From assembly GCA_013287965.1 (NCBI GenBank), contig JABDCU010000002.1, forward strand, positions 27,133-91,132: 64,000 bases of DNA. The letters are read 5' to 3'. Below the pieces are notes generated by a model that was given only the letters and a program-made list of their open reading frames with translations, was not told the origin of the DNA and made no database searches. Positions 7,074 to 55,244 of this stretch are shown here, piece after piece. A program made the position numbers and the translations under genes. Source of the stretch: Candidatus Omnitrophota bacterium (GTDB taxonomy: Bacteria; Omnitrophota; Gorgyraeia; Zapsychrales; Fredricksoniimonadaceae). The number at the start of each line of letters is the position of its first letter. The first letter of the stretch is position 1.

Positions 7074-7112
7074 TTTCAGCTTTATTAATGATTTAAATTA
7101 TTTGGAGGGATC

Positions 7113-36894: not shown

Positions 36895-36915
36895 TACTAT
36901 TAATAAGGAGGTCCT

Positions 36916-37730: not shown

Positions 37731-38377
37731 TGGGTCAAATCCGTAAGATCAACGATGTTTATTATATTGAATTCTACGCCCGCGGGTTGCTTTACTCACA
37801 GCTTGCCGGCGATGATATAGAGGAAGCCCAAAAGCTTTTAGAGCGGGTGGAAAAAAAGATCGCCGGCGGTGAAGCGCTGACCATCGCCCGTCACATAGAC
37901 CTGCCGGATTTTTTTGAGCGCTTCCTGGCTGAAGCAAGAGGGCAGCATGGCCCCAAAAGTACCGCGCGATTTGACAGCACCATCAAACATTTCAGCACTT
38001 TTCTGGCTAAAGATTTTCCTCAAGTCCTTCAATTGGCCCAGCTGACGCCTGCCATCATTGAATCGTACAAAGCTTATTTAACCAAAACACAAAAAGCAAA
38101 GATCGTTAACCTGACCATCCTTTTGGTCAGGGATATTTTGGAATTCGGCATTAAATTGGGATTTATTAACGATAATCCCAGCTTGCATGTGCGTTTATTG
38201 CCCTGGCCCAAGGCAATGGCGAGAAAGCCAACAGCCCGTTATGAGATAGCCAGGCAATTATTACCTAAAGCTACCGGCTTGGGTAAGCTTGCCCAATTAT
38301 TAAAACTCCCGGACATCTCCCGTGCCATGTACTATGCCGATTTAATCCCTTTAAGCAGGCAAGAGGCGTATCAATGA
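37730..38377 (+). CDS. Stand-alone phage-integrase N-terminal (SAM-like core-binding) domain protein; no catalytic domain
   Basis: INDVYYIEFYARG..., FLERF..., TIKHFSTFL..., LTPAIIESYKAYL... resembles the integrase arm/core-binding half. 215 aa with no R..HxxR..Y catalytic region. Start overlaps the upstream stop (TGATG). Confidence 0.55.
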   Translation: MGQIRKINDVYYIEFYARGLLYSQLAGDDIEEAQKLLERVEKKIAGGEALTIARHIDLPDFFERFLAEARGQHGPKSTARFDSTIKHFSTFLAKDFPQVLQLAQLTPAIIESYKAYLTKTQKAKIVNLTILLVRDILEFGIKLGFINDNPSLHVRLLPWPKAMARKPTARYEIARQLLPKATGLGKLAQLLKLPDISRAMYYADLIPLSRQEAYQ

Positions 38378-40209
38378 ACACTCTGCGTTGGCTGGTCCTT
38401 ATCCTTTTAGGTTTGGCGATCTATGCCCAGACATTCGGGTTTGGTTTCGTTTTCGATGATAATTTTTATATACTTGATACTTCCTATATTAAAAGTTTTG
38501 ATGCGATCAGCCCAATATGGGCCATTCTTCCCAAGACCCGCCTGGTGGGTATCTATTCCTTCGCATGGAATTATAATATTGGCCAGTTAGACCCGCGCGG
38601 GTATCATATTTTTAATTTTTTGGTCCATCTTTTAGCGGCAGGGCTGGTGTGGGCTTTGGCCGCGTTGCTTTTTAAGATCGCGGGAGGGAAGTCAAATAAA
38701 CCGCTTCTTCAAGAGCTCCCTTTTTTTATCGCGCTGCTGTTCCTTGTCCATCCTTGCCAGACCCAGGCCGTGTCCTATATTTCCCAGCGTTTTGAATCCA
38801 TGGCCGCTGTATTTTATCTCGGTAGTATTTATTTTTATCTACGCGGACGGACAGCATCTTTAAGGGCAGATAAGGTTTTTTTATTCACCTGTTCCGTCGG
38901 ATTTTCTCTCCTTGGGATATTGACTAAAGAGACGGCGGTGACCATTCCTTTGATGATCTTGGCAGTCGAATTCATTCTCTTTAACAGGGTCCCTGTAAAA
39001 TCCAAAAAATCCTCGCCCCGGCAGCCGTACCTGCTGATAAGTATTTTAGGCGTCCTGTTTGTTCTTTTATTGATGAAAATGGTACGGACGGATTTTTTCA
39101 ATATCTATTTCCATTTTTCCGCTCCTTCAGAATCTCACCAGGGCGACATGATCACCGGCGGCAGGTATGTCCTGACCCAAATGCGCGTCTTTTTGACTTT
39201 TTTACGGCTATTAATATTTCCTATCAATCAGAACGTAGACTACGATTACCCATTATCAACAGGGATTCTTGCCCCGCCGCTGACCTTAGTGGGGCTTTGC
39301 CTGATTGGTTTTATTATTTTTTTGATCTTTAGATTACGCAAAGAATGGCCATTGATCGCCTTTGGCCTGGCGTGGATCCTGATCACCTTTTCCATCAACA
39401 CCGCTCCTCGTGTTAATGTGATCTTCGAACATAAATTATACCTGATCTCATTCGGATTTTTCCTGGCAGCAGTGTGTGCCCTATCAACGGTCATTAAAGA
39501 CCGTAAGATTTTATTTGGGATTTTGATCACGCTTATTGCTGTCTTGTCTTTAGCCAGTTATAATCGCAATCAAGTATGGAAGAGTGAGCTGACTCTCTGG
39601 AGTGATGCCGCCCGGAAATCGCCCCATAAAGCAAGGCCCTACAGCAGCCTTGGTGTTGCCTATGGCATGCAAGGTGATTTTGTCCAAGCGTTGCAAAATA
39701 TCAATAAAGCCATTACTATCAATCCTAATTATGCACAAGCCTATAATAATCGCGGTAATACCTATTCTAAATTAGGCAATTATACCCAAGCTATTCTGGA
39801 CTTAAACAAGGCCATTGCCATAAAGCCTGATTATACGCAAGCGTATACTAATTTAAGCGAGGTCTACGATAAACGTGCTACTGTTTCTGCCCAGCAAGGT
39901 AATTTCACCCAGGCCATGCCGGATTTTAATAAAGCCATAGAAATAAACCCCGGGCATGCAGAATTTTATGTAAATCGCGGCACTTGTTATGCCCAACAAG
40001 GGGACCTTGCTCAGGCTTTATCGGATTACGGTAAAGTCATTGCCATCAATCCTGATTATGCAGAGGTGTATTACAATCGGGCGGTCACCTATTATCAATT
40101 AAAAAAATACGATAGGGCTTGGAAAGATGTTCATCGAGCAGAAGAATTAGGGGCTGCTGTTAACCTTAAATTTATTAGTGTGCTAAGAAGAGTATCTGGT
40201 ATAGAATGA
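38374..40209 (+). CDS. Polytopic membrane protein with C-terminal TPR repeats (TMTC-like / GT-C-type glycosyltransferase candidate)
   Basis: About 10 hydrophobic segments with an early FVFDDNFYI motif, then at least six TPR units (AYNNRGNTYSKLGNY..., etc). ATGA overlap. Confidence 0.6.
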   Translation: MNTLRWLVLILLGLAIYAQTFGFGFVFDDNFYILDTSYIKSFDAISPIWAILPKTRLVGIYSFAWNYNIGQLDPRGYHIFNFLVHLLAAGLVWALAALLFKIAGGKSNKPLLQELPFFIALLFLVHPCQTQAVSYISQRFESMAAVFYLGSIYFYLRGRTASLRADKVFLFTCSVGFSLLGILTKETAVTIPLMILAVEFILFNRVPVKSKKSSPRQPYLLISILGVLFVLLLMKMVRTDFFNIYFHFSAPSESHQGDMITGGRYVLTQMRVFLTFLRLLIFPINQNVDYDYPLSTGILAPPLTLVGLCLIGFIIFLIFRLRKEWPLIAFGLAWILITFSINTAPRVNVIFEHKLYLISFGFFLAAVCALSTVIKDRKILFGILITLIAVLSLASYNRNQVWKSELTLWSDAARKSPHKARPYSSLGVAYGMQGDFVQALQNINKAITINPNYAQAYNNRGNTYSKLGNYTQAILDLNKAIAIKPDYTQAYTNLSEVYDKRATVSAQQGNFTQAMPDFNKAIEINPGHAEFYVNRGTCYAQQGDLAQALSDYGKVIAINPDYAEVYYNRAVTYYQLKKYDRAWKDVHRAEELGAAVNLKFISVLRRVSGIE

Positions 40210-41534
40210 CCCATTTAGAGATGAAAACCATGCGATTGCCACGAGCCATTTTAGCAGTTTTTGGGATATCATTTGTTTATTGGGTTTATCTGGCTTTGAG
40301 GTGGAGCTTTTGTTCTGACGTTATTGGATATAAGGAATTAGGCGGCATATTCTACCGCCATGGGTTGATTGGTTATGCAAGTACAGGCCTGCATCGTGAA
40401 CCGCTTTATCCTTTCTTGTGTTCTTTAGCAATGAGTATACAAAGTTTGAGCGGTATTACGTTCACGCATGTCATGGCAGGCTTCAGCGTCCTGATACTGG
40501 TGATAACGCAAATTCTTATGTATATCATTTTGCGGGAATTAAATATCCGCACCTGGGTTTGTTCTTTGACCCTTCTTTATTGGGCTTTATCCACAGCGAT
40601 CACCAGCTCGGCTTTCAACATGTTGTTATTTTGTGAAATTATTACATATCCATTCATCACAGCGGCAGTCATTGCCGGTTACTATGGATGGAAGGCAGTA
40701 AAGGAAAATAACAAAAAGACGGCATGTTGTTGGGGGGCAGTCACTGGTGTTATGTTTATGGCCTTGACTTTTGTCAAAGCTGTTTTTGAATGTATTTGTC
40801 CGCTGTACCTTTTATTTTTTATGGTACTGTGTCTATTTAAGAATAAAATATCTACTTCTCTTGTTTGCTTCCTGGCTGCCGCAGGGATATTATTTTACGT
40901 CCCTGTTATTGGTTATAAATCTTTGAATAAAATTTATAACGGAAATTATGCCATTGCTGACCGTGGTCCAAACACTCTTTATGGCGTTGCGGCCCACAGA
41001 ACATTCCCGTTTAATTTTAGAAGCTATCTGGCCAAACTCACTTCCGTGGCAGGGGATGATGTCTGTATCAAATATTTTAGAGAAGAAGAATGCTCTTACT
41101 GGAGCTGGCATCTAACGGATGCGCTGGGTGCCGATAAAATGAATGAATTGAAGAGGGCCGGCTTACCTCCTCAGATCGTTACAGAGGATCTTTTAGGGCT
41201 TTCTATAGAAAAAGTGATAGGTAATTTGCCCAAATATACTTTATTAACAGCAACAGAAAGTTTGAAAGCGTATTTTTGGGAAGGAACAAATGGCCTTATT
41301 CCATTGCATTTTATTATGGCAATACTAACATTTTTTTCTATGTTTTATTGCTTTTTATTGTTTAAAAGTCTTCCTGATTTGATGAAACACGTGCTGGCCA
41401 TCATTTTATTTTTTATTTTCTTTAATTCTCTTTTTGAAGTTTCACAACGTCATTTTCTTCCGGTCGTTCCGTTGTATCTGCTCGTTATAGGCTACGCTTT
41501 TAATTCATTTTTTAGAACAGTCAGGAATTTTTGA
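40206..41534 (+). CDS. Polytopic integral membrane protein, function unknown (possible GT-C-like)
   Basis: 442 aa, many hydrophobic segments. ATGA overlap with the upstream TPR gene. No motif recognised. Confidence 0.5.
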   Translation: MTHLEMKTMRLPRAILAVFGISFVYWVYLALRWSFCSDVIGYKELGGIFYRHGLIGYASTGLHREPLYPFLCSLAMSIQSLSGITFTHVMAGFSVLILVITQILMYIILRELNIRTWVCSLTLLYWALSTAITSSAFNMLLFCEIITYPFITAAVIAGYYGWKAVKENNKKTACCWGAVTGVMFMALTFVKAVFECICPLYLLFFMVLCLFKNKISTSLVCFLAAAGILFYVPVIGYKSLNKIYNGNYAIADRGPNTLYGVAAHRTFPFNFRSYLAKLTSVAGDDVCIKYFREEECSYWSWHLTDALGADKMNELKRAGLPPQIVTEDLLGLSIEKVIGNLPKYTLLTATESLKAYFWEGTNGLIPLHFIMAILTFFSMFYCFLLFKSLPDLMKHVLAIILFFIFFNSLFEVSQRHFLPVVPLYLLVIGYAFNSFFRTVRNF

Positions 41535-41591
41535 TTTTAAAAATAAAATATGGATTTTATAAGTATATTAAATTAAAGTAGTTGCGATCCT

Positions 41592-41679
41592 GGAGAGGTG
41601 GCAGAGTGGCCGAATGCGGCGGTCTTGAAAACCGTTGCCTCGCAAGGGGCCGTGAGTTCGAATCTCACCCTCTCCGCCA
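41592..41679 (+). tRNA. tRNA-Ser (anticodon UGA), CCA encoded
   Basis: Acceptor GGAGAGG/CCTCTCC, anticodon loop CTTGAAA, long variable arm, T-arm GAGTTCGAATCTC, 3-prime GCCA. Confidence 0.9.
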
Positions 41680-41792
41680 TTAAAAATAACGTGTCGTAAG
41701 TGCTTGACTTGACACGTGATAATAAATATGTTAGTCTTTAGATAGGCGTTTGTGACTGTCTTGTGACATTACAAAGCCGAAAGGAGATTAAC

Positions 41793-42824
41793 ATGGCTGT
41801 TTATAAGCGCGGTAAAATATATTATGTGGACATTCTTCTTCCCGACGGTAAACGCCATAGGAGGAAGGCTGGGCCTTCAAAAGAAGTAGCGGAAAACATC
41901 CAGAAGGATATGGAGGTCCAGAAGGCCAAAGGGGAATTCGGCTTTCTTCCTAAGGACAGTGATTTACCTCCGTTGTTTGAGGGATACATTGAGAAAACCA
42001 CGAACGACAACTCCCCGAGTACAGTAACGCGATATAAGGGTATTATAGAGAATTTTAAGACCTTCCTGTCTAAGAGATACCCGCACGTTTCAAAACACTC
42101 CCACCTTAAACCAGAAATATTTGAAAAGTATAAAACCTATCGCATAGGGCAAGACGCCAAACCAAAGACAATCAATATTGAGCTTCAGACCCTTAAGTCT
42201 CTGATGATCTGGGCCGTTGGTCAAGGCCATGCAAAGTCCAACCCCGCCCAAAACGTAGAGACGATAAAGATCAAAAAAAGGCTTGAGGGTGGCCGCTGGT
42301 TGACTTCGGAAGAGGTTGATAAGCTCTTGAAGCTTAGTAATGAATGGCTTTATCCCATTTTTTACACCTTTATCTACTCTGGGATGCGTAAGAGTGAATT
42401 AGAAAATCTTACATGGGATGATATAGATTTTGCACGCCGTATTATTAAAATCCGTATAAAGGATGACTGGACCCCAAAGACTGACGAGAGGGACATACCG
42501 ATAAGTGATGATTTATTAAAGTTACTTCAAAAGCAAAAGAAGAAAGCCATAGGCTCTTTAGTCTTCCACGATGGTGAGGGCAATAAGATTGATGAGAATA
42601 GGCTGCGTCGAAATCTTATGAGTGTCACCAAGCTGGCAGGCTTCCCTGATGTAACCAAAATCCACTCACTCCGTCATACCTATGGAAGTCACTTAGCGCA
42701 GCAGGGTGTTCCTTTGCCTGCAATTCAGAAATTCATGGGCCACGCGAATATTCAGACCACAATGGTGTATGCTCATTTGGCTCCTGGTTACAGGCCAGAT
42801 GTAGTCAAGAATTTAAAATTTTAA
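41793..42824 (+). CDS. Tyrosine-type site-specific recombinase/integrase
   Basis: N-terminal AVYKRGKIYYVD arm-binding-type start, SAM-like middle, catalytic R (GMRKSEL), HSLRHTYGS, and GHANIQTTMVYAH containing Tyr. AAGGAG RBS. Confidence 0.92.
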   Translation: MAVYKRGKIYYVDILLPDGKRHRRKAGPSKEVAENIQKDMEVQKAKGEFGFLPKDSDLPPLFEGYIEKTTNDNSPSTVTRYKGIIENFKTFLSKRYPHVSKHSHLKPEIFEKYKTYRIGQDAKPKTINIELQTLKSLMIWAVGQGHAKSNPAQNVETIKIKKRLEGGRWLTSEEVDKLLKLSNEWLYPIFYTFIYSGMRKSELENLTWDDIDFARRIIKIRIKDDWTPKTDERDIPISDDLLKLLQKQKKKAIGSLVFHDGEGNKIDENRLRRNLMSVTKLAGFPDVTKIHSLRHTYGSHLAQQGVPLPAIQKFMGHANIQTTMVYAHLAPGYRPDVVKNLKF

Positions 42825-42847
42825 AGAGTTTGAGTTGGTGGAAGAAG

Positions 42848-42880
42848 TACGCGATTAGTGCGCGATTAATGCGTGATTAT
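42848..42880. repeat. Three tandem 11-bp repeats downstream of integrase
   Basis: TACGCGATTAG / TGCGCGATTAA / TGCGTGATTAT, head to tail. Confidence 0.8.
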
Positions 42881-42984
42881 GAAAAAAGGTACGCAGTATA
42901 CACGTCTGTCAGGGATTAGTAGAAAATCAAAAGAAGGTGTTTGAATTTTGTGATATATTATTGAATCTCTTAAAGGAATTTTAA

Positions 42985-44367
42985 ATGACTTACCGTGAAT
43001 CCGAAATAGTCGAATTTAAGAAATCCACTGCTGAATTGAAAGAAGCAGTTTTTTCTATTTCCGCCATCTTGAATAAGCACGGTCAGGGCGAAGTGTATTT
43101 TGGTATTAGAGATGACGGTACGGTTGTCGGTCAGATGGTGGGTAAGGGCACCATTAAGGACGTGACCCAGACTATCACAGACAACCTTGACCCCAAGATT
43201 TTTCCTAAAATTGAGCAAAGAAAAATAGAAGGCAAGGATTGTATCGTCGTTGAATTTCACGGCGTCCATCAGCCCTATTTTGCCTATGGACGGGCGTATA
43301 TGCGGGTCGGGGAATCCGATAAACATTTGACCGCACGGGAGATTGAACATTTTATCCGAAAACAGAAACGATGGTTATGGGAAAATGAAGTCTCCAACAA
43401 GAAATTAACCGATGTTAATGCCGCAACGGTTAAGGAGTACATGCGAAAAGCCAATGCGGCCAAGCGCATTAATTTTAAATACACCGACGTAAAGACTACT
43501 TTAGGAAAGTTGGGATTATTGGTAGGTGGAAAATTGACCAAGGCCGCCGAGGTTTTGTTTTGCAAGAATACTCCTATTGAAGTCCAGGCCGCTGTCTTTG
43601 CAGGGACAGATAAAAACACCTTTTTAGACATAAGTAAGTTTGAGGGAAATATTTTTAAACTGCGTGAAAGGGCCGAGCTATATCTTAAAGAGCATATCAA
43701 ATGGCGTGTTGAAATCGAAAGCGGCCCCAGGAAGGAGATTCCTGAAATCCCCGTTGACGCCATTCGTGAGGCCATCGGTAATTCATTATGCCATAGAGAT
43801 TATACCGACCCCAAAGGTGTTGAGGTTGCCATTTTTAAAGACAGAGTTGATATTTACAACCCAGGAACATTCCCCGAGGAGTTGTCTCCCGAAGACTTTA
43901 TTAAAGGCGGCGGTTATTCCATTTTACGAAATCCTTTAATCGCAGAGACAATGTATAAGTCCGAGGACATCGAGAAATGGGCCAGCGGATTAAAAAGAAT
44001 TTATGATGAATGTAAGTTGGTTGGCGTCAAAGTCGAATTTAAGCAAGTCAAGACAGGTTTTGTTGTGTCATTTAGGCGACCCAAATGGGAAGAAGGAAAA
44101 GGTTTGGAGGTAGGTGGTCAGAAAAAGCAGTCAGAAAAGGTGGCTGGAAAAGGTTCGGAGGAAGTGCGGAGTAAATACGGAGAAAGTGCGGAGAAAGTCT
44201 ATTTATCCATTCAAGCCAATCATTTTATTAAGACCCATGAAATAGCAAAGCAAACCCAATTATCGCAAAGAACAGTTGAGAATGTTATTTTAAGGCTAAA
44301 AAGAGGCCGATTCCTAAAACGTATTGGCCCTGATAAAGGCGGCCATTGGGAAACTATAAGCACATAG
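42985..44367 (+). CDS. AlbA_2 (Schlafen-like) DNA-binding domain + HATPase_c_4-like + C-terminal wHTH protein
   Basis: ESEIVEFKKS...GEVYFGIRDDGTVVG (AlbA_2), AIREAIGNSLCHRDY (ATPase-like), C-terminal LSQRTVENVILRLKRGRFLKRIG. Architecture often annotated as a RecG-like or transcriptional regulator protein. Confidence 0.75.
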   Translation: MTYRESEIVEFKKSTAELKEAVFSISAILNKHGQGEVYFGIRDDGTVVGQMVGKGTIKDVTQTITDNLDPKIFPKIEQRKIEGKDCIVVEFHGVHQPYFAYGRAYMRVGESDKHLTAREIEHFIRKQKRWLWENEVSNKKLTDVNAATVKEYMRKANAAKRINFKYTDVKTTLGKLGLLVGGKLTKAAEVLFCKNTPIEVQAAVFAGTDKNTFLDISKFEGNIFKLRERAELYLKEHIKWRVEIESGPRKEIPEIPVDAIREAIGNSLCHRDYTDPKGVEVAIFKDRVDIYNPGTFPEELSPEDFIKGGGYSILRNPLIAETMYKSEDIEKWASGLKRIYDECKLVGVKVEFKQVKTGFVVSFRRPKWEEGKGLEVGGQKKQSEKVAGKGSEEVRSKYGESAEKVYLSIQANHFIKTHEIAKQTQLSQRTVENVILRLKRGRFLKRIGPDKGGHWETIST

Positions 44368-44372
44368 GGAAT

Positions 44373-44807
44373 ATGACTCGATGGGATTTATTAAATAATT
44401 TAATGATGTCAGGTGAAGATCGACAAGCCATCGGTAAGGCGTGGCCTTTGTTTTTCTTCTTGGTTTTTTATAGTGGCAGATCCAATAAATATGTGACTAA
44501 CTATGCAGAGCTAAAAGAAAAGTTGAAAGAGAGTTCAAATACAATTAAAGCATGGCGGGATCATTTGGTGAAGAATAAAGTGGTACAAGTTTTTAGGGGA
44601 AGCGCATCCATGAGTTTCGTTTTTCTTCCACCGTATGCTTCTTTAGTGACTTGTGAGCAGGATGATATTACGCAGGTTAAAATGGTCGGTGATCCGGCCA
44701 CCAAACGTTTACTTGAGAAGCTTTCTTTGTATAATAACATGTCTTTACTTCCTATCGTTGCGGAACTTAGCCAGAAAATTACTAATATTGAAAAAAAGAT
44801 TGGATAA
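44373..44807 (+). CDS. Hypothetical protein (possible wHTH)
   Basis: 144-aa ORF starting 5 nt after the AlbA_2 gene stop. No recognisable motif. Followed by a terminator. Confidence 0.5.
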   Translation: MTRWDLLNNLMMSGEDRQAIGKAWPLFFFLVFYSGRSNKYVTNYAELKEKLKESSNTIKAWRDHLVKNKVVQVFRGSASMSFVFLPPYASLVTCEQDDITQVKMVGDPATKRLLEKLSLYNNMSLLPIVAELSQKITNIEKKIG

Positions 44808-44832
44808 ATAGAAGAGACATTATACCAACACA

Positions 44833-44869
44833 AAAGGGCTCTCTGATACACAGAGGGCCCTTTCTTTTT
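44833..44869 (+). terminator. Rho-independent terminator
   Basis: AGGGCTCTCTG-ATACA-CAGAGGGCCCT stem with one mismatch, followed by TTCTTTTT. Confidence 0.75.
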
Positions 44870-44920
44870 ATATGAAGGAGCGGTAGAATACTACAACTTT
44901 CTAAACAGAGAAGATTAAAA

Positions 44921-45721
44921 ATGGTGAACAAATTTATTAATTTAAATGAAACGGAACTAGATCTTCCTATTTATCGATATTTGACCATCCCAAAATTATT
45001 TTCTATGTTGTCTTTTGGGGCTTTATGGTTTCCTAAATTAAGAATTTTACAAGATCAATTTGAAGGAGGGCTAACTGTTCCTACAGAAGTTTTAATGAGG
45101 CAAAAAAATGAGGAAATTAAGGGTTTTTTTAATACACCTGATGCCCATCAGCAGATAGATAACTGGCCTAATAAAAATGTTGAAGACGGACGGGAATTGA
45201 CTCTTGTTAATTGTTGGTTTTTGGGGCCCGACGAATCTTTGGCTATGTGGGATGAGTATGTTGGATCTAAAACAGAGGGAGTTGCCGTTAAATCCACGAT
45301 AGGAAGATTGATACAAAATGTGGCAACCATGAAAGAGGTGTCTGAAATTGGGAAGATTAAATATGTGGATTTCTCGAAACACGAAATGGGTTTATATGAA
45401 GCTCATCAAGCTTGCGAAAGAGCTTTTATAAAAGATTTAAAGTACAGCCATGAACGAGAGGTAAGAATTTCTACCATGAGCTTTAAACATCCCTATTGTG
45501 TCGATATGAAAGGACGCCAGTTTACACCGGAAGAGTGCTCAGGCAAGAATATGAATAATTTTGATCAAGATGGACTTTATATTTTGATAAATCTTTCTGG
45601 ATTGGCTTCATCCATCATAATGTCACCCTACTCTTCAGATTGGTGTAAAAACACCGTTTCTCGAGTACTTGAGTTATCTAAATTAAATATACCTATAGAA
45701 AGATCAAAATTAACGTTATGA
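44921..45721 (+). CDS. DUF2971-like protein, upstream partner of the TIR gene
   Basis: LPIYRYLTIPKLFSMLSFGALWFPKLRILQDQFEG, LVNCWFLGPDESLAMWDEYVGSKTEGVAVKS and HEREVRI match my recollection of the DUF2971 pattern. ATGA overlap with the next gene. Confidence 0.6.
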   Translation: MVNKFINLNETELDLPIYRYLTIPKLFSMLSFGALWFPKLRILQDQFEGGLTVPTEVLMRQKNEEIKGFFNTPDAHQQIDNWPNKNVEDGRELTLVNCWFLGPDESLAMWDEYVGSKTEGVAVKSTIGRLIQNVATMKEVSEIGKIKYVDFSKHEMGLYEAHQACERAFIKDLKYSHEREVRISTMSFKHPYCVDMKGRQFTPEECSGKNMNNFDQDGLYILINLSGLASSIIMSPYSSDWCKNTVSRVLELSKLNIPIERSKLTL

Positions 45722-48700
45722 AATATCCTAAGGTATTCATTAGTTATCGTAAGAGTCAGCAATCCCGCCTAGATGAAGCTCGTGAAATAAGAAATTTATT
45801 ACAAACCCAATTTAACTTTGAAACGTGGTTAGATGAAGATCTAAAGGGTGGAGACATTTGGAGAAAAGAGATAGATGAAAAATTGGATTGGGCAGATAGT
45901 TTTTTACTTATAGTGCATTCTGATTTGCATACGGGGAAGGTGGTTTTAGATGAAGTACATTATGCTTTAGAAGCAGTTCAAAGTGGCAAATATAAGAATT
46001 TGGTCTGCCTTATCGTCGAAGAAAGTTTAAATGGCCAATACATAGAAACAATTGATAACACTTTAAAAACGAAGTTCCCTCGAAAAAGTTTTCCTGAATT
46101 ATATCCAAGACAATACATTTCAAAATTTACTCCTTCCTGGAAAGACGATTTAGGGGTTTCTTTTAATCCTATTCTTAAGGAACAGCAAGGGAAAGCCGTA
46201 AATGAAGCAGTAGTAGATGGGGCAAATAAACAAAAGAGAGCTCTTTTGGTTTATGAAGGTCTAGTTTATCTTCTACGACCCTTTAGTTTTAAAGATAAAG
46301 AAGTCAGGCTAATGTTAAAGGGAGTGAGAAGGAAGCTAAATATTATAATTGCCGATGAGCGTAATATTATCTCCAATCTGAAAAGGAATAAAATCATCCT
46401 AGAAACAGGAGATTACATTCTTGTTCATGATGATGATTTTGGTAGAAAGCGAATAGTCCAAGCGTTTTTCGGAACTCCGGCACTTTTAAACTTGGATATT
46501 TTCAAGAATAGTTCTTTAGGGAAAATTAAAACGATACTTTCTTCTTTAGCACAGATAGATAACGTCGCTGTGGAAAATAAGCTAAGAGAGTATCTGGTTG
46601 CTATTAAGGCTATGATTATTAAACAAGATAATGACCAGAGATTAGAGAGTTTGAATTTATTAGAAAAGTTTGCCTATCGCATCCCGAGAGAAACCGTAGA
46701 CATAATAAATTTGCTCGTTGATCCTCGTAATGAGAAAAGAGCTAAGAAATATTTGAAGCCGTTCCCTCGGTATGGATGGGAGCACAAATACATTTTGAAT
46801 AAGTGTTTAGATGTATTAAATCAATACAATGTCCGGTATGGGGCCTTTCATGAATGTTTTGGCATTCTCATAAAACTTTATACATATAAGTTTGAAGAGA
46901 AAGAGTACGCTGATGTAAGGAAGCGGGCTAGCGACACGATGCGAGAAATAGCAAATTATAATCTAAAGTTAATAAGGCCCAAGAATTTGGGCTTTAGAGG
47001 TTACGGAGCCCAGGCACTTGTTTTTGAAGAAATCAAACGACTTCTTAGAAGTAAAGATGAAAGGCTTTTTGATTTAGCTATTTTATTGATAAATAAATTA
47101 TTTGAGACAGAGGCAGAGGCAACTTATTGGGGTTACAAAACCATGACCCATGAGCGAGGTCCGCTCCCTTTATCTAAAGGATTAGTTAAATTAAGAAAAC
47201 AATTAATTGACGAAGTAGTAATACATATCGGTATAAACAAAAAAAATATTAGGAGGCTAAAATGCATAACTGCATTAAAGGGTGCAACTACCTATCCTAT
47301 GAATGTGTATTCAGCTCTTGAACTAGCCATAATGAGCAATACAAGGTTTGTACTTCAATTTTATTCTACTCTAAAAACAGAAAACGAAAACGCAACCGTG
47401 TTACAGGAAATTGATCAACAGTTATCATGGGTAAGAATGCGTTTGGGTCCTTACAAAGGAGAAAATCGAACATCTGCAACGAGTCTTTATAAACAGGCCG
47501 ATCAGCTACAAAGAAAGATACGAGGAGATACATTTTATAGTATTTATAGAACCTTGGTCGGAAGCCACGATTTTGATGAGTTGGGTGGATGGCGGGCTGT
47601 GCAGGATAAACGTGAAAAGGAGATACAGGATTTTATATCTGCTTTGAATGAAAAAAGTCTCATACGCTGGATAAAGATATTAAAACGAATTATATCTACA
47701 TACATCATTAAGAATGACTATGCTTTCGGGAATTTTCGTCGATTTTTAGTGAAGCTAGGTCAGGAAAAACCTGAAATTTCCCTCAAGATTCTCAAAGTGT
47801 TGATTAAAGATATTAAGCCTGTGGATTTCTTAACCTATCTTTTAATGGGGATTAGAAGCTCAGGTAAGCCTCAATTCACCAATGTTGTAGCACGGGATTG
47901 GATAAGATCTAAGGATTTTGAACTGATTAAGCAAATTCCATATTTTTATTCTTATGTTAGTGGTCAAGGAATGGGAACAGTCGATTTCAAAATTTTTGAT
48001 CAACTAATGAAATTGAGGCTTCCCATGATCCAGCGGGCAGAGCTAGATAAAAGAGTATGCTCAGTGATTTCGGCTTTATACAAGGATAGAAAAAAAGAAT
48101 TATATAAGTTTTTTGAAATTTCGATTAAAAGGGCATCAATCCAAAATGTTTCAGAGTTTTGTCATCTTTTAGGTACGGCGGAGTTTGCTGGACATCTTAA
48201 AATTGTCCACCTGCCAATGAAGTTATTTCGATTATTAGTTAATAAGCTAGTACAAAAGAATGTACTGGATGATTATGACACAAGAATCTTAGCTGCTTAT
48301 GGAGAGATCAATATTTTTAAGTTAATCGATTTCTTTAAGATTAGAATCCTTCGTAGGCCAAAATTGAAATTGATTAAATTAACTGACTACCGTTATGATT
48401 CAATTCCGTACCATTTGGGTGAAATTGGAAAGCTTATTGGAGGGCATAAAGATTACGGTAAGATTTTAGAAAAGATTATCGATGAATGGATTCCCGAAAC
48501 AAAAGATAGCATGCTTTCATACGAAGGGAGAGAATTTATACATAATGTTTCCCCAGACCTAGATTCTAAGTTGAAGGAAATTCTTATGAATAAAATAAAA
48601 GTCAGCAAGAGTAAAGCAAAAGATGTTTTACTTTTGTTGTCTGAGTTTGATGGGAATCAATCGATTGATGATTTATGTATTGAGGCAATTAAACGTTACG

Positions 48701-48960
48701 ATGATGAAGATATAAGGAGTATGGTTTCTAGTGCAATATATGCAACGGGAGGCGTGACAGGAGAATACGGATTTTATAATGCCCATAAAGAAAGAAGAGA
48801 TCGGGTTCTTAAGTGGAAGCATGGCAATAATAAATGTTTGAAGCAATTTATAATTGATTTTTCTAAGTCCTTGTCTAAAGATATGCAAAAAGAAAAAGAG
48901 CGAGTTGAGGTCAGAGAAGAGCTAATTAAAAGGGGAGTAGATGTTTTCTCACTAAATTGA
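45718..48960 (+). CDS. TIR-domain protein with roughly 940-aa C-terminal helical-repeat region
   Basis: N-terminus KVFISYRKS...DIWRKEIDEKLDWADSFLLIVHSDLHTGKVVLDEVHYAL has the TIR (TIR_2-like) layout with a candidate catalytic Glu. The remainder is Leu/Lys/Ile-rich and helix-prone, with no P-loop seen. Confidence 0.75.
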   Translation: MKYPKVFISYRKSQQSRLDEAREIRNLLQTQFNFETWLDEDLKGGDIWRKEIDEKLDWADSFLLIVHSDLHTGKVVLDEVHYALEAVQSGKYKNLVCLIVEESLNGQYIETIDNTLKTKFPRKSFPELYPRQYISKFTPSWKDDLGVSFNPILKEQQGKAVNEAVVDGANKQKRALLVYEGLVYLLRPFSFKDKEVRLMLKGVRRKLNIIIADERNIISNLKRNKIILETGDYILVHDDDFGRKRIVQAFFGTPALLNLDIFKNSSLGKIKTILSSLAQIDNVAVENKLREYLVAIKAMIIKQDNDQRLESLNLLEKFAYRIPRETVDIINLLVDPRNEKRAKKYLKPFPRYGWEHKYILNKCLDVLNQYNVRYGAFHECFGILIKLYTYKFEEKEYADVRKRASDTMREIANYNLKLIRPKNLGFRGYGAQALVFEEIKRLLRSKDERLFDLAILLINKLFETEAEATYWGYKTMTHERGPLPLSKGLVKLRKQLIDEVVIHIGINKKNIRRLKCITALKGATTYPMNVYSALELAIMSNTRFVLQFYSTLKTENENATVLQEIDQQLSWVRMRLGPYKGENRTSATSLYKQADQLQRKIRGDTFYSIYRTLVGSHDFDELGGWRAVQDKREKEIQDFISALNEKSLIRWIKILKRIISTYIIKNDYAFGNFRRFLVKLGQEKPEISLKILKVLIKDIKPVDFLTYLLMGIRSSGKPQFTNVVARDWIRSKDFELIKQIPYFYSYVSGQGMGTVDFKIFDQLMKLRLPMIQRAELDKRVCSVISALYKDRKKELYKFFEISIKRASIQNVSEFCHLLGTAEFAGHLKIVHLPMKLFRLLVNKLVQKNVLDDYDTRILAAYGEINIFKLIDFFKIRILRRPKLKLIKLTDYRYDSIPYHLGEIGKLIGGHKDYGKILEKIIDEWIPETKDSMLSYEGREFIHNVSPDLDSKLKEILMNKIKVSKSKAKDVLLLLSEFDGNQSIDDLCIEAIKRYDDEDIRSMVSSAIYATGGVTGEYGFYNAHKERRDRVLKWKHGNNKCLKQFIIDFSKSLSKDMQKEKERVEVREELIKRGVDVFSLN

Positions 48961-49040
48961 AGTTGATTTTTAGTGATTTTTTGATTACAAGTAGTTTGGC
49001 AAAAGAAAGTTTCTATTCACCGAGTAATTTAGAATTTGCC

Positions 49041-49454
49041 ATGAAACCACAAATTAGTCTTGTTACTCTTGGTGTTGATAACTTGGAAGAATCAACTAAA
49101 TTTTATGAAAAAGGTTTAGGACTGCCTCGGTTATCTTTTGAATCAAATGATGTAGCTTTTTTTAATCTCAATGGTACATGGTTGGCTTTATATCCCTGGG
49201 AAAAGTTGGCTGTAGATGCACAGGTTTCAGCTAAAGGTACAGGCTTTCGTGGAATTACTTTGGCGCATAATGTGAGTAGTAAGGCGGAAGTAGATGAGGT
49301 TATATCTCAAGCGAAAAAGGCAGGAGCAAAGATTCAGAAACCAGCACAGGATGTATCTTGGGGAGGGTATTCTGGGTACTTTGTTGACTTAGACGGGCAT
49401 CTTTGGGAAGTAGCCTGGAATCCTCATTTTTGGCCTGGTCCAAAGGACGAATAA
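49041..49454 (+). CDS. VOC (glyoxalase/bleomycin-resistance/dioxygenase) family protein
   Basis: MKPQISLVTLGVDNLEESTKFYEKGLG...GYSGYFVDLDGHLWEVAWNP. The ORF-track start at 48957 overlaps the TIR gene end, so the internal ATG is preferred. Confidence 0.8.
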   Translation: MKPQISLVTLGVDNLEESTKFYEKGLGLPRLSFESNDVAFFNLNGTWLALYPWEKLAVDAQVSAKGTGFRGITLAHNVSSKAEVDEVISQAKKAGAKIQKPAQDVSWGGYSGYFVDLDGHLWEVAWNPHFWPGPKDE

Positions 49455-49493
49455 ATGTGGAAAGTCATTTGTGTATAAGAGTTCGGGAAATCT

Positions 49494-49712
49494 ATGAAAT
49501 TAATAACAATTTTTGGTTTAACATCAGTTTCAGCAATGTTGATATTTTATGCCCTAGAACATCACAGTCATTGGTTTATCTTGGCTTTTGCTGTATCGTG
49601 TGCATTAGCTTCAATCTATGGTTTTCTTCAGGGTGCTTGGCCGTTTGGACTTGTTGAAGTAATCTGGTCAATGGTTGCCCTCCAACGGTGGAGGTCTAGT
49701 AAAAAGAATTAG
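49494..49712 (+). CDS. Small two-TM membrane protein
   Basis: 72 aa with two hydrophobic helices and a basic C-terminal tail. No function inferred. Confidence 0.5.
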   Translation: MKLITIFGLTSVSAMLIFYALEHHSHWFILAFAVSCALASIYGFLQGAWPFGLVEVIWSMVALQRWRSSKKN

Positions 49713-49954
49713 TCTTTTAAATGCAAGTAAATCGTTCCTGCCAATGACCTGCAATTGAGTATCGATCATGTTTTTGTAAGTAATTTCCTTCGTTAATACC
49801 CACCATTTATTGCTAAATTCATTTTTAATGTTTTTTTAATGCTTTTAGGCATTATTTTAATTAGCTAAATTTGGCCATCAAGGTAAACTTATTCTCATAG
49901 GGTAATTTTGCATTCAGAGAGGGAAATTGTTTTTTTATTAAGGAGGGTATTCAT

Positions 49955-50074
49955 ATGAGAATTGCCCCGACACAATCTATGAAACAAGCAGAACGTATGA
50001 CGTTTCTGTTCGCAATGGCCCAAATGCTTTTAGCTTTGGGTTTATTTTGGGCCTTTAAAGCACATATTGTATAA
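49955..50074 (+). CDS. Small hydrophobic peptide (39 aa) upstream of kdp operon
   Basis: MRIAPTQSMKQAERMTFLFAMAQMLLALGLFWAFKAHIV, preceded by TTAAGGAGGGTATTC. Not in the ORF track because it is under 60 aa. Confidence 0.45.
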   Translation: MRIAPTQSMKQAERMTFLFAMAQMLLALGLFWAFKAHIV

Positions 50075-50095
50075 CCGTTTAAGGAGGGCATTCTT

Positions 50096-50179
50096 ATGAT
50101 GGATTTTGTTTTTGTTGCTTTAACAGTTTTTTTCGGAATCATTTCTTGGGCTTTTATTGTTTTGTGTTCAAAAGTATAA
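50096..50179 (+). CDS. Small hydrophobic peptide (27 aa) upstream of kdpF
   Basis: MMDFVFVALTVFFGIISWAFIVLCSKV, preceded by TTAAGGAGGGCATTC. Confidence 0.45.
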   Translation: MMDFVFVALTVFFGIISWAFIVLCSKV

Positions 50180-50191
50180 GGAGGGGTATTT

Positions 50192-50281
50192 ATGTTGGCA
50201 ATTTATTGGATCGGCGGTATTACTTCATTTGTGTTGTTCGTTTACCTTTTAATAGCTTTGCTTAAACCGGAGATATTCTAA
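50192..50281 (+). CDS. kdpF: Potassium-transporting ATPase subunit F
   Basis: MLAIYWIGGITSFVLFVYLLIALLKPEIF: the VYLLxALLxPExF ending is typical of KdpF. AAGGAGGGG RBS. The stop overlaps the kdpA ATG by 1 nt. Confidence 0.8.
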   Translation: MLAIYWIGGITSFVLFVYLLIALLKPEIF

Positions 50282-52026
50282 TGAGCGCCAATGACTTTAT
50301 TCAAGCAGCTTTTTTTCTTGTGATCGTGCTTTTAACGGTCAAACCGTTTGGTACTTACATGGCCCGTATATATGAAGGAAGTCCTACGGGTATAAACGTG
50401 TGGTTTGCACCTGTAGAAAGATGGTTTTACCGTCTTTGTGGTGTCAAACCGGAAGAAGGCATGTCCTGGAAAACCTATGCCTTTGCCATGATCTTGTTTA
50501 ATATTTTGGGTGTATTGGTAGTTTATGCTTTCCAGCGCCTTCAAGCCAGCCTTCCGTTAAATCCAATGGCCATGCCAGCAGTATCGCCTGATTCTTCCTT
50601 TAATACTGCGATTAGTTTTGCATCTAACACAAACTGGCAAGGTTATGGCGGGGAAAGCACCATGAGTTATTTGACTCAGATGTCGGCTTTGGTGGTCCAG
50701 AATTTCGTTTCTGCGGCAACTGGTATGGTTATCCTGATAGCAATCATTAGAGGATTTATTCAGAAGCAGATGAACACCATCGGAAACTTTTGGGTTGATT
50801 TGACAAGGACAGTTCTTTATATATTGCTACCTTTGTCTATTATCTTTGCTGTTGCTTTTGTTTCTCAAGGGATACCGCAGACCTTTAGTAAAAGCGCCGC
50901 GGCAACATATCTACAAACCGAAAAAGATAGTAATGGAAAGCCGGTCACAGAACAGGACATTGCTTTAGGACCTGTGGCTTCTCAGATATCTATTAAGCAA
51001 TTAGGAAGCAACGGCGGCGGGTTTTATAATGTAAACTCTGCCCATCCGTTTGAAAATCCAACACCGTTATCTAATTTTTTAGAATTGTTGGCCATCATGT
51101 TGATCCCTGTGGCCTTGTGCTATACCTTTGGTTACATGGTCAAAGACCGTCGGCAAGGATGGGCTATATTAGCAGCCATGTTTATTATTTTTCTTCCCTG
51201 CCTGTGGTTTGGCATACAGATTGAGCAGCAAGGCAATCCTTTGTTGACTAAATTAGGGGTGGATCAAAGTGCAACAGCCTTGCAACCCGGAGGTAATATG
51301 GAGGGTAAAGAGGCTCGTTTTGGTATTGCCAACTCAGGTCTTTGGGCTATAAGTACAACAGCGGTTGCCAATGGGTCGGTAAATTGTATGCATGATTCTT
51401 TTATGCCATTGTCCGGCATGATACCTATGTGGCTCATTCAAATAGGTGAAGTGGACTTTGGCGGTGTTGGCTGCGGGTTGTATGGCATGATTGGATTTAT
51501 CATTGTGGCTGTTTTTATATCTGGCCTTATGATCGGCCGTACGCCGGAATATTTAGGCAAAAAGATTGAGGCCTTTGAAATGAAAATGGCTTCCTTGGTT
51601 GCTGTCATTCCTCATATGTTTATATTGTTACCAGTAGCCATTGCCGTGCTTACAGCAGCGGGGAAAGCAGGAATTGCCAATCCCGGACCGCATGGTTTTA
51701 GTGAGGTTCTTTACGCATTTTCATCTGCGGCAGGCAATAACGGAAGTGCTTTTGGCGGTATTAGCGCGAATACGGTTTTTTATAATACCGCGTTAGGCAT
51801 TTCAATGTTTTTTGGCCGTTATTGGCTGGCGATCCCGATGTTAGCTATTGCCGGATCATTGTCAGCTAAGAAGATTGTACCTACAACCCAAGGCACATTA
51901 CCGACACATACGCCGTTGTTTATTGTCTTTTTAGTGATGGTGGTTTTGGTCATCGGGGCATTGGTATTTTTCCCGGCCTTGGCTTTAGGGCCTATTGTCG
52001 AACATTTAATGTTGGTTTCTAACTAA
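50281..52026 (+). CDS. kdpA: Potassium-transporting ATPase subunit A
   Basis: 581-aa polytopic protein. [10 protein letters not shown] and GSNGGGF selectivity-filter-type motifs. Confidence 0.95.
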
Positions 52027-52034
52027 GGATTAAT

Positions 52035-54113
52035 ATGAAAAAAACACATAATAAAGTAATATCGCTATTTGAGCCGACAATATTATGGCCGGCTGTTATT
52101 GAATCATTTAAGAAATTAGATCCCCGGCACCAGATCAAAAATCCGGTGATGTTTGTTGTTCTGGTTGGCAGCCTATTGACTACAGGGTTATGGCTTCAAG
52201 CATTAGGGGGCCACGGAGAAGCAAGTGCTAGTTTCATTTTAGCCATCTCATTATGGTTGTGGTTTACGATAGTATTTGCTAATTTTGCGGAAAGCATGGC
52301 AGAAGGCCGGGGCAAAGCCCAGGCTGAAAGCTTACGCAAAGCCCGTAAAGATACACCGGCTAAAAAAATGTCCAAGCCTGCGCATGGGGCTAGTTATAGT
52401 ACCGTTTCAGCAACGATCTTGCGTAAAGGTGACGTTGTTCTGGTTGAACGTGGTGATTATGTCCCTATGGATGGCGAGGTCATTGAGGGTATAGCATCCG
52501 TTGATGAAAGTGCTATTACCGGGGAAAGCGCTCCGGTCATCCGTGAAAGCGGTGGAGACCGTTCAGCTGTCACCGGTGGGACACGAGTTATTTCCGATTG
52601 GATTGTGGTGCGTATCACCGCCAATCCGGGAGAAACCTTCCTGGATCATATGATCGCCATGGTTGAAGGGGCTCGCCGTCAAAAAACACCTAATGAAATC
52701 GCCTTGAGCATTTTATTGGTGGTTTTTACTATCATCTTTCTTTTAGTGTGCGTGACTCTTTTACCGTATTCTATTTTTAGCGTTGCCACCGCTGGAAAAG
52801 GTGTAGTCATCACCGTAACAGTTTTAGTTGCCTTGCTGGTCTGTCTTATTCCAACCACCATCGGTGGGTTATTGCCAGCCATTGGTATCGCTGGTATGGA
52901 TCGCATGATTCAGGCTAATGTCATCGCCACTTCAGGACGCGCTGTTGAAGCGGCCGGTGATGTGGATGTATTATTACTGGATAAAACAGGGACTATTACC
53001 CTTGGGAATAGGCAGGCAGTGGCTTTTATTCCGACTAAAGGGGTAAAAGAGGAATATTTGGCCGATGCCGCCCAATTATCTTCCTTGTCCGATGAAACGC
53101 CTGAAGGCCGCAGTATTGTCGTTTTAGCCAAGGAAAAATATGGTATTAGAGAGAGGCAAACCCAGGAACTTGAAGCAAGGTTCATTCCTTTTACTGCTCA
53201 AACTCGGATGAGTGGGGTGGATTTGGGTGCCAATCGCCAAATCAGAAAGGGTTCTGTTGATGCTATTGAAGATTACGTCAAGAAAGTTGGCGGAAGTTTT
53301 CCCCTTGATTTGAAATCGTCAATCGAGAACATTTCTAAAAGTGGGGGTACTCCATTAGTCGTAGCAGAAAATAAGAATGTCCTTGGAGTTATTCAATTAA
53401 AGGACATTGTCAAAGGGGGCATTAAAGAACGTTTCGCGGAGTTACGCAGCATGGGCATTAAGACTATCATGATCACCGGAGACAATCCTTTAACAGCGGC
53501 TGCTATTTCCGCAGAAGCTGGTATGGATGATTTTCTGGCCCAGGCAACACCTGAAACCAAATTAAAATTGATCCGTGATATGCAAACTGGTGGTCGTCTG
53601 GTGGCCATGACCGGAGACGGGACCAATGACGCCCCTGCTTTAGCTCAAGCGGATGTGGCGGTCGCTATGAACACGGGAACACAGGCTGCTAAAGAGGCAG
53701 GAAACATGGTGGATTTGGATTCAAATCCCACTAAATTAATTGAGGTCGTGAAAATCGGCAAGCAGCTTTTAATCACCCGTGGTTCTTTGACCACGTTTAG
53801 TATTGCCAATGACGTTTCCAAATATTTTGCGATTATCCCGGCAGCATTTGTGGGGACGTATCCGGCGCTTGGGGCGTTGAATATTATGCATTTAACAACA
53901 CCACAAAGTGCTATTTTATCGGCAGTTATTTTTAATGCACTGATCATTATAGCTCTTATTCCTTTATCATTGTTCGGTGTGCCTTACAGGCCAATGGCCG
54001 CAAGCCGTCTTTTACGGGATAACTTACTTATTTACGGGGTTGGAGGCATCATTGCTCCGTTTGCCGGGATTAAGTTAATCGACATGATTTTGGCAGCTTG
54101 TCATTTAGTGTAA
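52035..54113 (+). CDS. kdpB: Potassium-transporting ATPase subunit B (P-type ATPase)
   Basis: DKTGTIT phosphorylation site, [21 protein letters not shown]. Confidence 0.97.
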
Positions 54114-54134
54114 AACTTTAAATAGGAGATTCAA

Positions 54135-54713: not shown

Positions 54714-54743
54714 ATATCATACAAACAACAGTGAAAGAATAAG

Positions 54744-55160: not shown

Positions 55161-55244
55161 TAGGTCTGGTGGTTCGCTGCAATATTTTGTTCTCAACGAT
55201 TTCTGCACGCCAGCCTACCATACTAATCGTAGAAAAGTCACAAG

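Follow-up and report, generated by a model that had tools for sequence, protein, structure and literature searches.

Genomic islands that tyrosine integrases place at tRNA genes (P4-type elements, pathogenicity or defence islands) and that carry defence genes are textbook biology. The locus described here lies in a 64,000-nucleotide stretch of a Candidatus Omnitrophota assembly (contig JABDCU010000002.1, positions 27,133 to 91,132), which we call the window and number from its first letter. The original prediction, made from these letters alone, had proposed that an integrase island with defence-like genes adjoins tRNA-Ser and that its right end is unsettled. Our comparative and compositional tests support it, including the two that it had itself named as able to refute it. 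We interpret positions 41680 to ~49750 as an integrative genomic island inserted beside tRNA-Ser(UGA) by a tyrosine integrase from a serine-tRNA-specialised family, with a probability of about 0.75. This figure, we stress, applies to the narrow island as a description of the integrase-linked unit, and it overlaps in part with an unlikely alternative, weighed below, in which that unit heads a larger composite. The island is a known kind of element, with all the testable defining features except a flanking direct repeat. It consists of a conserved head (the integrase, joined in this sub-lineage by an AlbA_2/HATPase_c_4/winged helix-turn-helix [wHTH] gene) and an exchangeable tail of low G+C content (GC). 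The tail comprises a 153-aa open reading frame (ORF) and an operon for a PDC-S31-like protein, a TIR-solenoid protein, a VOC protein and a small membrane protein.

A described system whose architecture resembles that of the TIR-solenoid protein is DSR2, in which a SIR2 NADase is fused to a helical, HEAT-repeat region. That region binds the phage tail tube protein, which activates the NADase (PMC11263360).

The integrase-linked block at tRNA-Ser(UGA)

The tRNA-Ser(UGA) gene (41592–41679, plus strand; ARAGORN, Rfam tRNA model 59 bits) would be the integration target and represents the attL side of the block. The 52 nt before it (41540–41591) match the native upstream region of a tRNA fragment in a related contig, L047, and an Rfam scan of 36–58 kb found no riboswitch or other element besides tRNA-Ser. 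As predicted, a complete tyrosine recombinase gene follows (41793–42824, plus strand; 343 aa). It is co-oriented with the tRNA, its ATG at 41793 lies exactly 114 nt past the tRNA 3′ end, and it has the ribosome-binding site AAAGGAG. Intact over its full length, the integrase retains its catalytic motifs (Phage_integrase E = 3e-32, model positions 1–169 of 172; SAM_5). Orthologues with 87–88% identity occupy the same site in contigs L005 and L015/L047, and homologues with 50–53% identity adjoin tRNA-Ser(GGA), again ~110 nt on the 3′ side. Judged by where its genes lie, the integrase family is specific for serine tRNA genes.

The spacer between the tRNA and the integrase gene (41680–41792, plus strand) is conserved across this family in an alignment of seven loci, which took in loci with integrases only 50% identical beside tRNA-Ser(GGA). 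It contains a TTGACA (41709–41714), a TAnnnT element (41732–41737) at a spacing of 17 nt, and two direct TTGTGAC repeats (at 41750 and 41761). The 50–53% homologues share the layout of TTGACA, 17 nt, TAnnnT and two TTG[TG]GAC repeats. A promoter-like match covers 41704–41732. We extended the window to window-equivalent position 73,082 with an identical Logan contig (L046), and in these 73 kb the TTG[TG]GAC pair occurs once. We infer that the spacer motifs are a putative integrase promoter/operator or arm-type sites.

The second gene of the head (42985–44367, plus strand) encodes a 460-aa protein with AlbA_2 (Schlafen-like) and HATPase_c_4 domains and a C-terminal wHTH (Pfam). It is 84–95% identical at the amino acid level to the L047/L015 copies, and its sole PDB relative, 3LMM, is uncharacterised. 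Three tandem 11-nt repeats, TRCGYGATTAN, lie between the two genes (42847–42881, plus strand). They are kept in L047 and absent from L005, and GCGYGATTA is found nowhere else in the window. The repeats may be an operator, perhaps for the wHTH protein.

A sister island on Ga0206849_1012 (L047) carries the same head with another tail. Its upstream genes are those of the window (gatCAB, ctpB, polysaccharide deacetylase, tsaD, bactofilin-HTH_17, HTH_17 and a 216-aa ORF). They are followed by tRNA-Ser, an integrase (P0125) with 87% amino acid identity, an AlbA_2 protein with 84% identity and then different cargo: a type II methyltransferase (MTase_II), a PRTase, an ORC/CDC6-like protein, CARF6 (1e-96) and a UvrD/GajB-like helicase. 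Nucleotide identity between the window and L047 is 90.7% over 41583–44106, from 9 nt before the tRNA into the AlbA_2 gene, compared with 71–77% in the upstream core; it picks up again at 44319–44352 and then ends. Where residues are conserved, the codon is identical in a fraction of 0.79 for the integrase and 0.83 for the AlbA_2 protein, against 0.31–0.53 for seven core genes; kdpABC, compared with the same metagenome-assembled genome (MAG), gives 0.45–0.58. Because the values for the head are well above those of the core, it split much later than the genomes; on this codon evidence, the head was exchanged horizontally between genomes. L005, with its 88% integrase, diverges directly past the integrase stop codon and has an XRE-like protein instead. 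With one swap point past the integrase (L005) and another past AlbA_2 (L047), the alignments indicate that the universal part is the tRNA plus the integrase. Head exchange and the swapping of defence cargo thus have clean comparative evidence.

The cargo inventory given by the original prediction (AlbA_2 ATPase-wHTH, small ORF, TIR pair, VOC, small membrane protein) agrees with the ORF list and Pfam. All genes lie on the plus strand, with the cargo co-oriented with the integrase. The first window-specific gene encodes the 153-aa protein (44346–44807), which extends past the cargo swap point (~44352–44367), is absent from L047 and has no Pfam, NCBIfam or PADLOC match. A terminator scan found a strong intrinsic-terminator-like hairpin with a 13-bp stem and a T run (44833–44873, plus strand), which divides the integrase/AlbA_2/153-aa unit from the defence operon. 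The operon begins with a gene for a 266-aa protein (44921–45721), whose residues 1–186 match the PADLOC model PDLC04993 (PDC-S31) over 176 of 245 model positions (E = 3.5e-13). This protein and the next had been described as a DUF2971-like/TIR pair. The TIR half was borne out; the match to Pfam DUF2971 is sub-threshold (E = 0.059; 15 bits, below the cutoff of 22), and PDC-S31 is the better assignment. A literature search found no publication on PDC-S31, and the single-sequence AlphaFold2 (AF2) model of the protein is unusable (predicted local distance difference test [pLDDT] score, 32). The stop codon of the 266-aa gene overlaps the start of the TIR gene by 4 nt (ATGA), and the two are translationally coupled here. 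We considered the 266-aa protein as an obligatory TIR partner and rejected this, since its gene is absent beside both full-length homologues of the TIR protein.

The TIR-solenoid gene itself (45718–48960; 1080 aa) has a Pfam TIR_2 match at the N terminus (E = 1.9e-11), which together with the PDC-S31 match makes up the defence-type matches in the cargo. The start of the ORF for a VOC/glyoxalase-fold protein (48957–49454, alternative ATG at 49041; Pfam 5e-14) overlaps the TIR stop codon. This protein is Fos-like but under all family cutoffs (5e-10 for the FosB model of NCBIfam, which is well short of the cutoff). The block closes with a 72-aa hydrophobic (membrane) ORF from the ORF list (49494–49712), which has no family match in Pfam or NCBIfam. 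Of the seven genes in the island, family scans assigned none to phage structure, replication or conjugation. Scans of viral contigs (IMG/VR) with the TIR protein, the 266-aa protein and the integrase found no relatives beyond integrases of 23–28% identity.

The tail stands out in composition, and neither k-mer nor codon signatures are uniform across the tRNA. The sharp fall in GC had been placed at the tRNA, which is not where it occurs: GC is already 0.36–0.44 from 38.4 kb, the integrase and AlbA_2 genes have 0.42–0.44, and the step to ~0.35 comes only at ~44.4 kb. The predicted contrast between the TIR gene and recA held for the low value of the former (0.348), but recA (7092–8177) has 48.2% and not 58%. 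The cargo block as a whole has a GC of 0.351. The tetranucleotide correlation of 44368–48960 with the core is 0.50, a value to compare with 200 size-matched core chunks, none of which falls below 0.84; the VOC gene and 72-aa ORF deviate to a similar extent. GC at third codon positions (GC3) is 0.52–0.575 in core genes, 0.47 in the integrase gene, 0.43 in the AlbA_2 gene and 0.38 in the 153-aa ORF. It is 0.275–0.315 in the 266-aa, TIR and VOC (0.275) genes and the 72-aa ORF (0.315). Further right, kdpABC has 0.35–0.42, and OsmC, DJ-1 and ECH have core-like values of 0.52–0.56.

Relatives show how variable the site is. In a genome-contig scan, the full tRNA had an exact counterpart in a single species-representative genome. 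This is a Candidatus Omnitrophota MAG, whose tRNA-Ser has another element on the 3′ side. Homologues of KdpA and the integrase are named Omnitrophica or Omnitrophota wherever the source gives a name. Identical copies of the proteins encoded by the flanking genes came from the same sample only. When metagenomes were scanned with the last 59 nt of the tRNA, 33 contigs identical over that length were obtained. In all 33, identity to the window stops exactly at CCA, and the sequences beyond fall into roughly twenty unrelated classes. One has a relaxase/TraD element, and HipAB, Fic and PIN genes and further integrases also occur. Window-related integrases are present in five contigs (L005 and L015, 87–88%; L014 and L023, 58%; L032, 46%), and L016, L018, L025 and L031 have other inserts at the same tRNA-Ser. 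A right flank is common to seven contigs and consists of an SDF (sodium:dicarboxylate symporter) gene on the minus strand, tRNA-Met(CAT) and a PMT_2 gene; the SDF proteins are 79–92% identical to each other. The distance from tRNA-Ser to SDF is 0.27, 0.3, 1.15, 2.3, 4.0 or 5.4 kb, tRNA-Met is always next, and the sites in L007 and L034, where SDF begins 0.27–0.3 kb after the tRNA, are near-empty. Given these variable gaps and contents, the interval between tRNA-Ser and SDF/tRNA-Met is a hypervariable hotspot with near-empty states. No relative compared has the gene order of the window without an integrase; their sites are near-empty, are occupied by other elements, or hold the same integrase ahead of different cargo. 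For the Omnitrophota, a poorly studied uncultured phylum, the locus puts on record both a hypervariable hotspot at tRNA-Ser and a family of integrases specific for that tRNA.

Two other kinds of insert at this tRNA were seen. In the Omnitrophota MAG JABDGZ01 (L003, 400–8000), TraD-like, relaxase/DUF3363, PIN, Fic-HTH_17 and HipAB genes follow an identical tRNA-Ser, and variants of this element are also found in L006, L010, L011, L019 and L030. An integrase-less MNT/HepT toxin-antitoxin insert of ~1.5–2 kb is present in L047 (8324–9838) and L033 (6459–8460), with MNT proteins 90% identical. It is bounded by a tRNA-Ser 5′ fragment (nt 1–39, to the anticodon loop, with native upstream sequence) and the complete tRNA-Ser; the 40-nt repeat of the tRNA 5′ half is exact in L047. 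The insert comes with a tRNA 5′ half and upstream region of its own, an arrangement opposite to the usual one, in which the 3′ part is restored.

The TIR-solenoid protein and its family

In the 1080-aa protein, a TIR_2 domain (residues 6–112) is followed by an all-alpha, HEAT-like solenoid of ~800 aa; Pfam found no NTPase domain. The TIR domain matches AbTir and other bacterial TIR NADase structures weakly (E = 0.003–0.04), in alignments that end before helix C and so stop short of Glu79. This residue is invariant in the three homologues, and we take it to sit where the catalytic Glu of TIR NADases is expected. A word-indexed search of 5.8 billion proteins returned two full-length homologues, both 42% identical. 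Both (L044 and L045) lie in tRNA-linked defence islands. In one, the neighbours are tRNA-His and genes for an Old/GajA-like ATPase, GmrSD and HsdM; in the other, an integrase gene that adjoins tRNA-Leu is 0.8 kb away, and a Dcm/REase_II/Vsr system and RadC are present. AlphaFold, run on a three-sequence alignment, gave a flavodoxin-like TIR domain and then an all-helical solenoid, with a pLDDT of 61 overall and 70–85 in much of the C-terminal half. Foldseek related the model to HEAT-repeat proteins (karyopherin, importin-beta, SF3B1 and CAND1), at low TM-scores of 0.15–0.25.

The solenoid belongs to a sizeable family. A HMMER search with residues 131–1080 collected 630 representatives at 50% clustering (E ≤ 1e-3), 84 of them at E ≤ 1e-30. 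Most members have ~800 aa and match residues ~271–1078, and others reach 960–1300 aa with extra N termini. Among 50 members, the N-terminal domains were DUF4365 in 11, RelA_SpoT in four, TIR_2 in three and NB-ARC/STAND in three. The closest 816-aa member (47% identity) has a separate, overlapping DUF4365 gene upstream. PADLOC matches in the family are confined to the effector domains, apart from partial OloA similarity in three members. Pfam appears to have no entry for the family, and PADLOC 2.0 essentially none.

By its architecture, the 1080-aa TIR-solenoid would be the sensor and effector of an abortive-infection system in one chain, an assignment we infer by analogy. The solenoid would bind a phage component and so free the NADase activity of the TIR domain, as DSR2 does with its SIR2 domain. 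Tentatively, and at somewhat less than even odds, the family as a whole would be undescribed, widespread anti-phage sensors with swappable effectors and a DSR2-like action, for which the island would be one of several vehicles between Omnitrophota genomes. With the same reserve, the effector in each case would be a TIR NADase, a DUF4365 nuclease, a RelA/SpoT-like pyrophosphokinase or an NB-ARC NTPase, either fused to the solenoid or encoded by an adjacent overlapping gene.

The right edge and the surrounding DNA

The best-supported right junction of the integrase-linked block is at 49713–49787, because the low-GC3 block stops there and kdp promoter homology begins. Homology to the native kdp promoter of three relatives starts at ~49788 (TTCGTTAATACCC...). 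The original prediction had found no direct-repeat copy of the tRNA 3′ end, and none emerged here: the best alignment scores were 20 in a Smith-Waterman comparison with 41.8–64 kb and 19 in the 9-kb extension beyond the window, below the 22.2 ± 2.1 of shuffled queries. The extension contains no tRNA gene. No tRNA-derived direct repeat was thus found in the 31 kb downstream or at the junction, a search with which a core shorter than ~10 nt remains compatible. Relatives were no more informative, as no attR was found in the available DNA of L003–L036, L047 or L050 (10 kb after the integrase in L047 and L050), and only 5′-half repeats were seen. A 12-nt tRNA match in L031 was rejected as chance, being inside a coding region.

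The DNA right of the junction is a displaced kdp segment (49788–55934, plus strand) outside the island proper, with a promoter, small ORFs, kdpF and kdpABC and no kdpD. The conserved promoter region (49788–49880) has two TTTTTAAT(G/A)C repeats. Three small ORFs upstream of kdpA (49936–50282), each with a ribosome-binding site, are a window-specific 39-aa ORF (49936–50055), a 27-aa ORF conserved in relatives (50097–50180) and kdpF (starting at 50193). A 138-aa kdpE receiver-domain fragment (54744–55160) lies 30 nt after kdpC and is 79% identical in nucleotides to the 5′ half of the relatives' kdpE; a second, complete and divergent kdpE (55245–55934) is 69–71% identical. Relatives with an 88–92% identical KdpA have the order PPK2 ... 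Wzy_C, cation ATPase, kdpFABC, kdpD, kdpE, a 334-aa gene and ATP-synt_ab. In the window, both flanks of kdp are unlike those of the relatives and kdpD is gone. The segment shows a core kdp operon, stripped of its sensor kinase, ending up in a variable region beside an island.

Beyond kdp, 56–73 kb encodes LysR, OsmC, DJ-1, ECH, SDR, RidA, hydrolases, MFS, AhpC, DsbA-like and ferritin proteins, then an HTH_3 gene and a resolvase, and has nothing in common with any fetched relative. The last part (L046 17084–21167, window-equivalent ~69.0–73.1 kb) holds the HTH_3 gene, unannotated 296-aa and 264-aa ORFs and the resolvase, a serine recombinase (19409–20065). With its low GC of 0.36–0.43, it may be another mobile module. 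The window contains no remnants of the relatives' post-tRNA spacer or SDF gene. Because kdp is out of context and without kdpD, and because SDF and tRNA-Met are absent to +31 kb, the 8-kb island marks the left limit of 31 kb or more of non-syntenic DNA, which could be either a composite island or a rearrangement with its breakpoint at the island end.

On the other side of the tRNA, a bactofilin-HTH_17 fusion, a 100-aa HTH_17 protein and the 216-aa ORF (together 36900–38377) are conserved in relatives. The 216-aa ORF (37727–38377) corresponds to an integrase N-terminal SAM-like domain alone, without the catalytic domain. Between it and the tRNA (38374–41534, GC 0.41) lie genes for a 611-aa TPR-repeat protein (38374–40209) and a 442-aa polytopic membrane protein (40206–41534). 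L036 is without these two, the tRNA following ~19 nt after the 216-aa ORF, and L047 has other genes instead. A 27% homologue of the 442-aa protein sits downstream of the tRNA in L025. Further left, 25434–30410 is absent from L036, L047 and L022 and has a GC of 0.425 and a deviant k-mer signature. Its single 1574-aa ORF (25625–30349), without a Pfam domain, shows distant similarity to two ORFs flanking kdp in L037, of 977 and 1427 aa.

Several observations weigh against the narrow island and its proposed function. No exact match of 10 nt or more to the tRNA-Ser 3′ end was found near any plausible boundary (whole tRNA plus 80 nt, both strands), nor were second copies of the spacer motifs GTGTCGTAAGT and CTTGACTTGACACGTG, of the TTG[TG]GAC pair or of GCGYGATTA that might be distal arm sites. 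Pfam scans of the island genes (41.7–49.8 kb) found no excisionase-like (Xis/HTH_17) gene. The relatives' right flank (SDF, tRNA-Met) is absent from all of 1–73082. Since the DNA right of 49787 is not that flank, the junction at 49713–49787 may be an internal seam of a larger composite region and not the island end. The TPR and 442-aa genes to the left of the tRNA (38.4–41.5 kb), which L036 and L047 do not have, are of low GC too, and all sequences compared are metagenome assemblies. As to a defence function, PDC-S31 is a candidate family and the TIR match is at the domain level; the 266-aa gene is not beside the TIR homologues in L044 and L045; the AF2 model of the TIR-solenoid is of moderate confidence; and the solenoid matched no solved chain by sequence (50-sequence profile) and no PADLOC model.

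The strongest alternative, which we still consider unlikely, is a composite island of at least 31 kb, headed by the integrase and built by serial insertions, with its attR beyond 73 kb window-equivalent. It would take in the VOC gene, kdp, the LysR/OsmC/DJ-1/ECH/SDR/RidA/hydrolase/MFS 'detox' cluster, AhpC/DsbA/ferritin and the resolvase module. The right flank of the relatives is missing throughout 41.7–73 kb, 56–73 kb has no counterpart in the fetched relatives, and kdp has lost kdpD as well as its conserved neighbours on either side, all as a composite would have it. All segments downstream of the tRNA are also off the core tetranucleotide signature (r = 0.65–0.82, compared with at least 0.84–0.89 for core chunks), and an HTH_3 gene and a serine recombinase are present at L046 17084–20065. 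The synonymous divergence of kdp is core-like (0.45–0.58), however, and its native promoter is kept, which suits relocation more than import; the GC3 of OsmC, DJ-1 and ECH resembles that of core genes (0.52–0.56); the sharp compositional block stops at 49.7 kb; and no repeat or second integrase binds the segments together. The divergence, the promoter and the GC3 values favour relocation of native DNA, while the deviant k-mer signatures and the resolvase keep the composite island in play. The original prediction had suggested that the missing attR could mean extension through kdp and the detox cluster, decay, or a repeat too short to see by eye. The first two are both possible, with the integrase-linked cargo ending at 49713–49787 and non-syntenic DNA running at least 23 kb beyond.

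Two further explanations are far less probable. The swap points directly past the integrase stop (L005) or AlbA_2 (L047), the want of an attR in the 31 kb of the window and in L047 and L050 (each 10 kb after the integrase), the integrase-less MNT/HepT inserts with a 40-nt tRNA 5′-half repeat in L047 and L033, and the integrase spacer conserved across distant homologues would all suit a capture platform that loosely resembles an integron, where the integrase would recruit and exchange cassettes both in the tRNA anticodon loop and directly downstream of its own gene. We hold this to be very improbable, given that the integrase is present or absent among relatives and bears signatures of horizontal transfer, that no attC-like repeats lie between the genes and that the integron-integrase model scores 66.5 bits against a cutoff of 265. 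The cargo is moreover co-oriented with the integrase and has its own terminator and promoter structure, and the L033 MNT/HepT insert has no integrase within 5.5 kb downstream. It is at least as improbable, and already largely refuted, that there is no mobile element at all, the integrase being a stranded relic in vertical DNA and the odd composition a reflection of gene content, or the junctions being assembly chimeras. That neither attR nor excisionase was found, that GC is low left of the tRNA too and that all data are metagenomic would agree with this. Against it, the integrase is full-length with its catalytic motifs, the integrase and AlbA_2 are far closer to their sister copies than core genes are, relatives have other content or near-empty sites, and the same joins from 25.7 to 73 kb recur in a separately assembled Logan contig.

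We therefore retain the narrow, integrase-linked island. It would no longer be precisely excisable, the far attachment site having been lost, being too short to detect or having been parted from the block by a later rearrangement. Such a rearrangement would also have put a kdpD-less kdp operon and the detoxification cluster in the place of the relatives' SDF gene and tRNA-Met.

Comparison with known systems

Like described tRNA islands, the element has an intact, co-oriented integrase just 3′ of a complete tRNA gene, atypical composition, presence or absence among relatives, accessory or defence cargo, and a constant integrase head with a variable tail. It differs from them in having no tRNA 3′ direct repeat in 31 kb, no excisionase and a right flank that is not that of its relatives. 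A prophage, a satellite or an integrative and conjugative element was rejected, as structural, replication and conjugation genes were not found, unlike the L003 element with its relaxase and TraD. An integron was rejected because the integrase falls below the model cutoff and no recurring inter-cassette repeats are present.

For the TIR-solenoid protein, three known systems share single features. The TIR_2 fold with its conserved Glu is that of Thoeris ThsB and AbTir-type NADases, with a weak match to ThsB (E = 6.7e-4). Unlike ThsB, the protein has no ThsA-like partner and carries a 950-aa extension that ThsB does not have. Thoeris was rejected, since there is no ThsA-like (SIR2/TM-SLOG) gene in the island and the ThsB match is weak and domain-level. 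The partners of short prokaryotic Argonautes in SPARTA (TIR-APAZ) and SPARDA (DUF4365-APAZ) likewise have a TIR or DUF4365 effector interchangeable on a common sensor scaffold. Here the scaffold is an alpha-solenoid, with no APAZ and no nearby Argonaute gene, and the 'Aga_TIR' and 'Aga_REase' PADLOC matches cover effector domains only. A STAND/Avs NTPase was rejected because the 1080-aa protein has no NTPase domain, although three of 50 family members carry NB-ARC.

DSR2 resembles the protein in its overall layout. Its effector is SIR2 and not TIR, the two share no sequence similarity, no PADLOC DSR model matched and no DSR2 chain is among the top 50 Foldseek matches. Membership was rejected on the TIR_2 N terminus and the missing DSR match, the architecture alone being similar. 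Both are single chains of ~1000 aa with an N-terminal domain of an NAD-consuming type, a long helical, HEAT-like region and a C-terminal domain, and both are found in defence islands. The solenoid family is a concrete, testable candidate for a new defence family of single proteins that would parallel DSR2.

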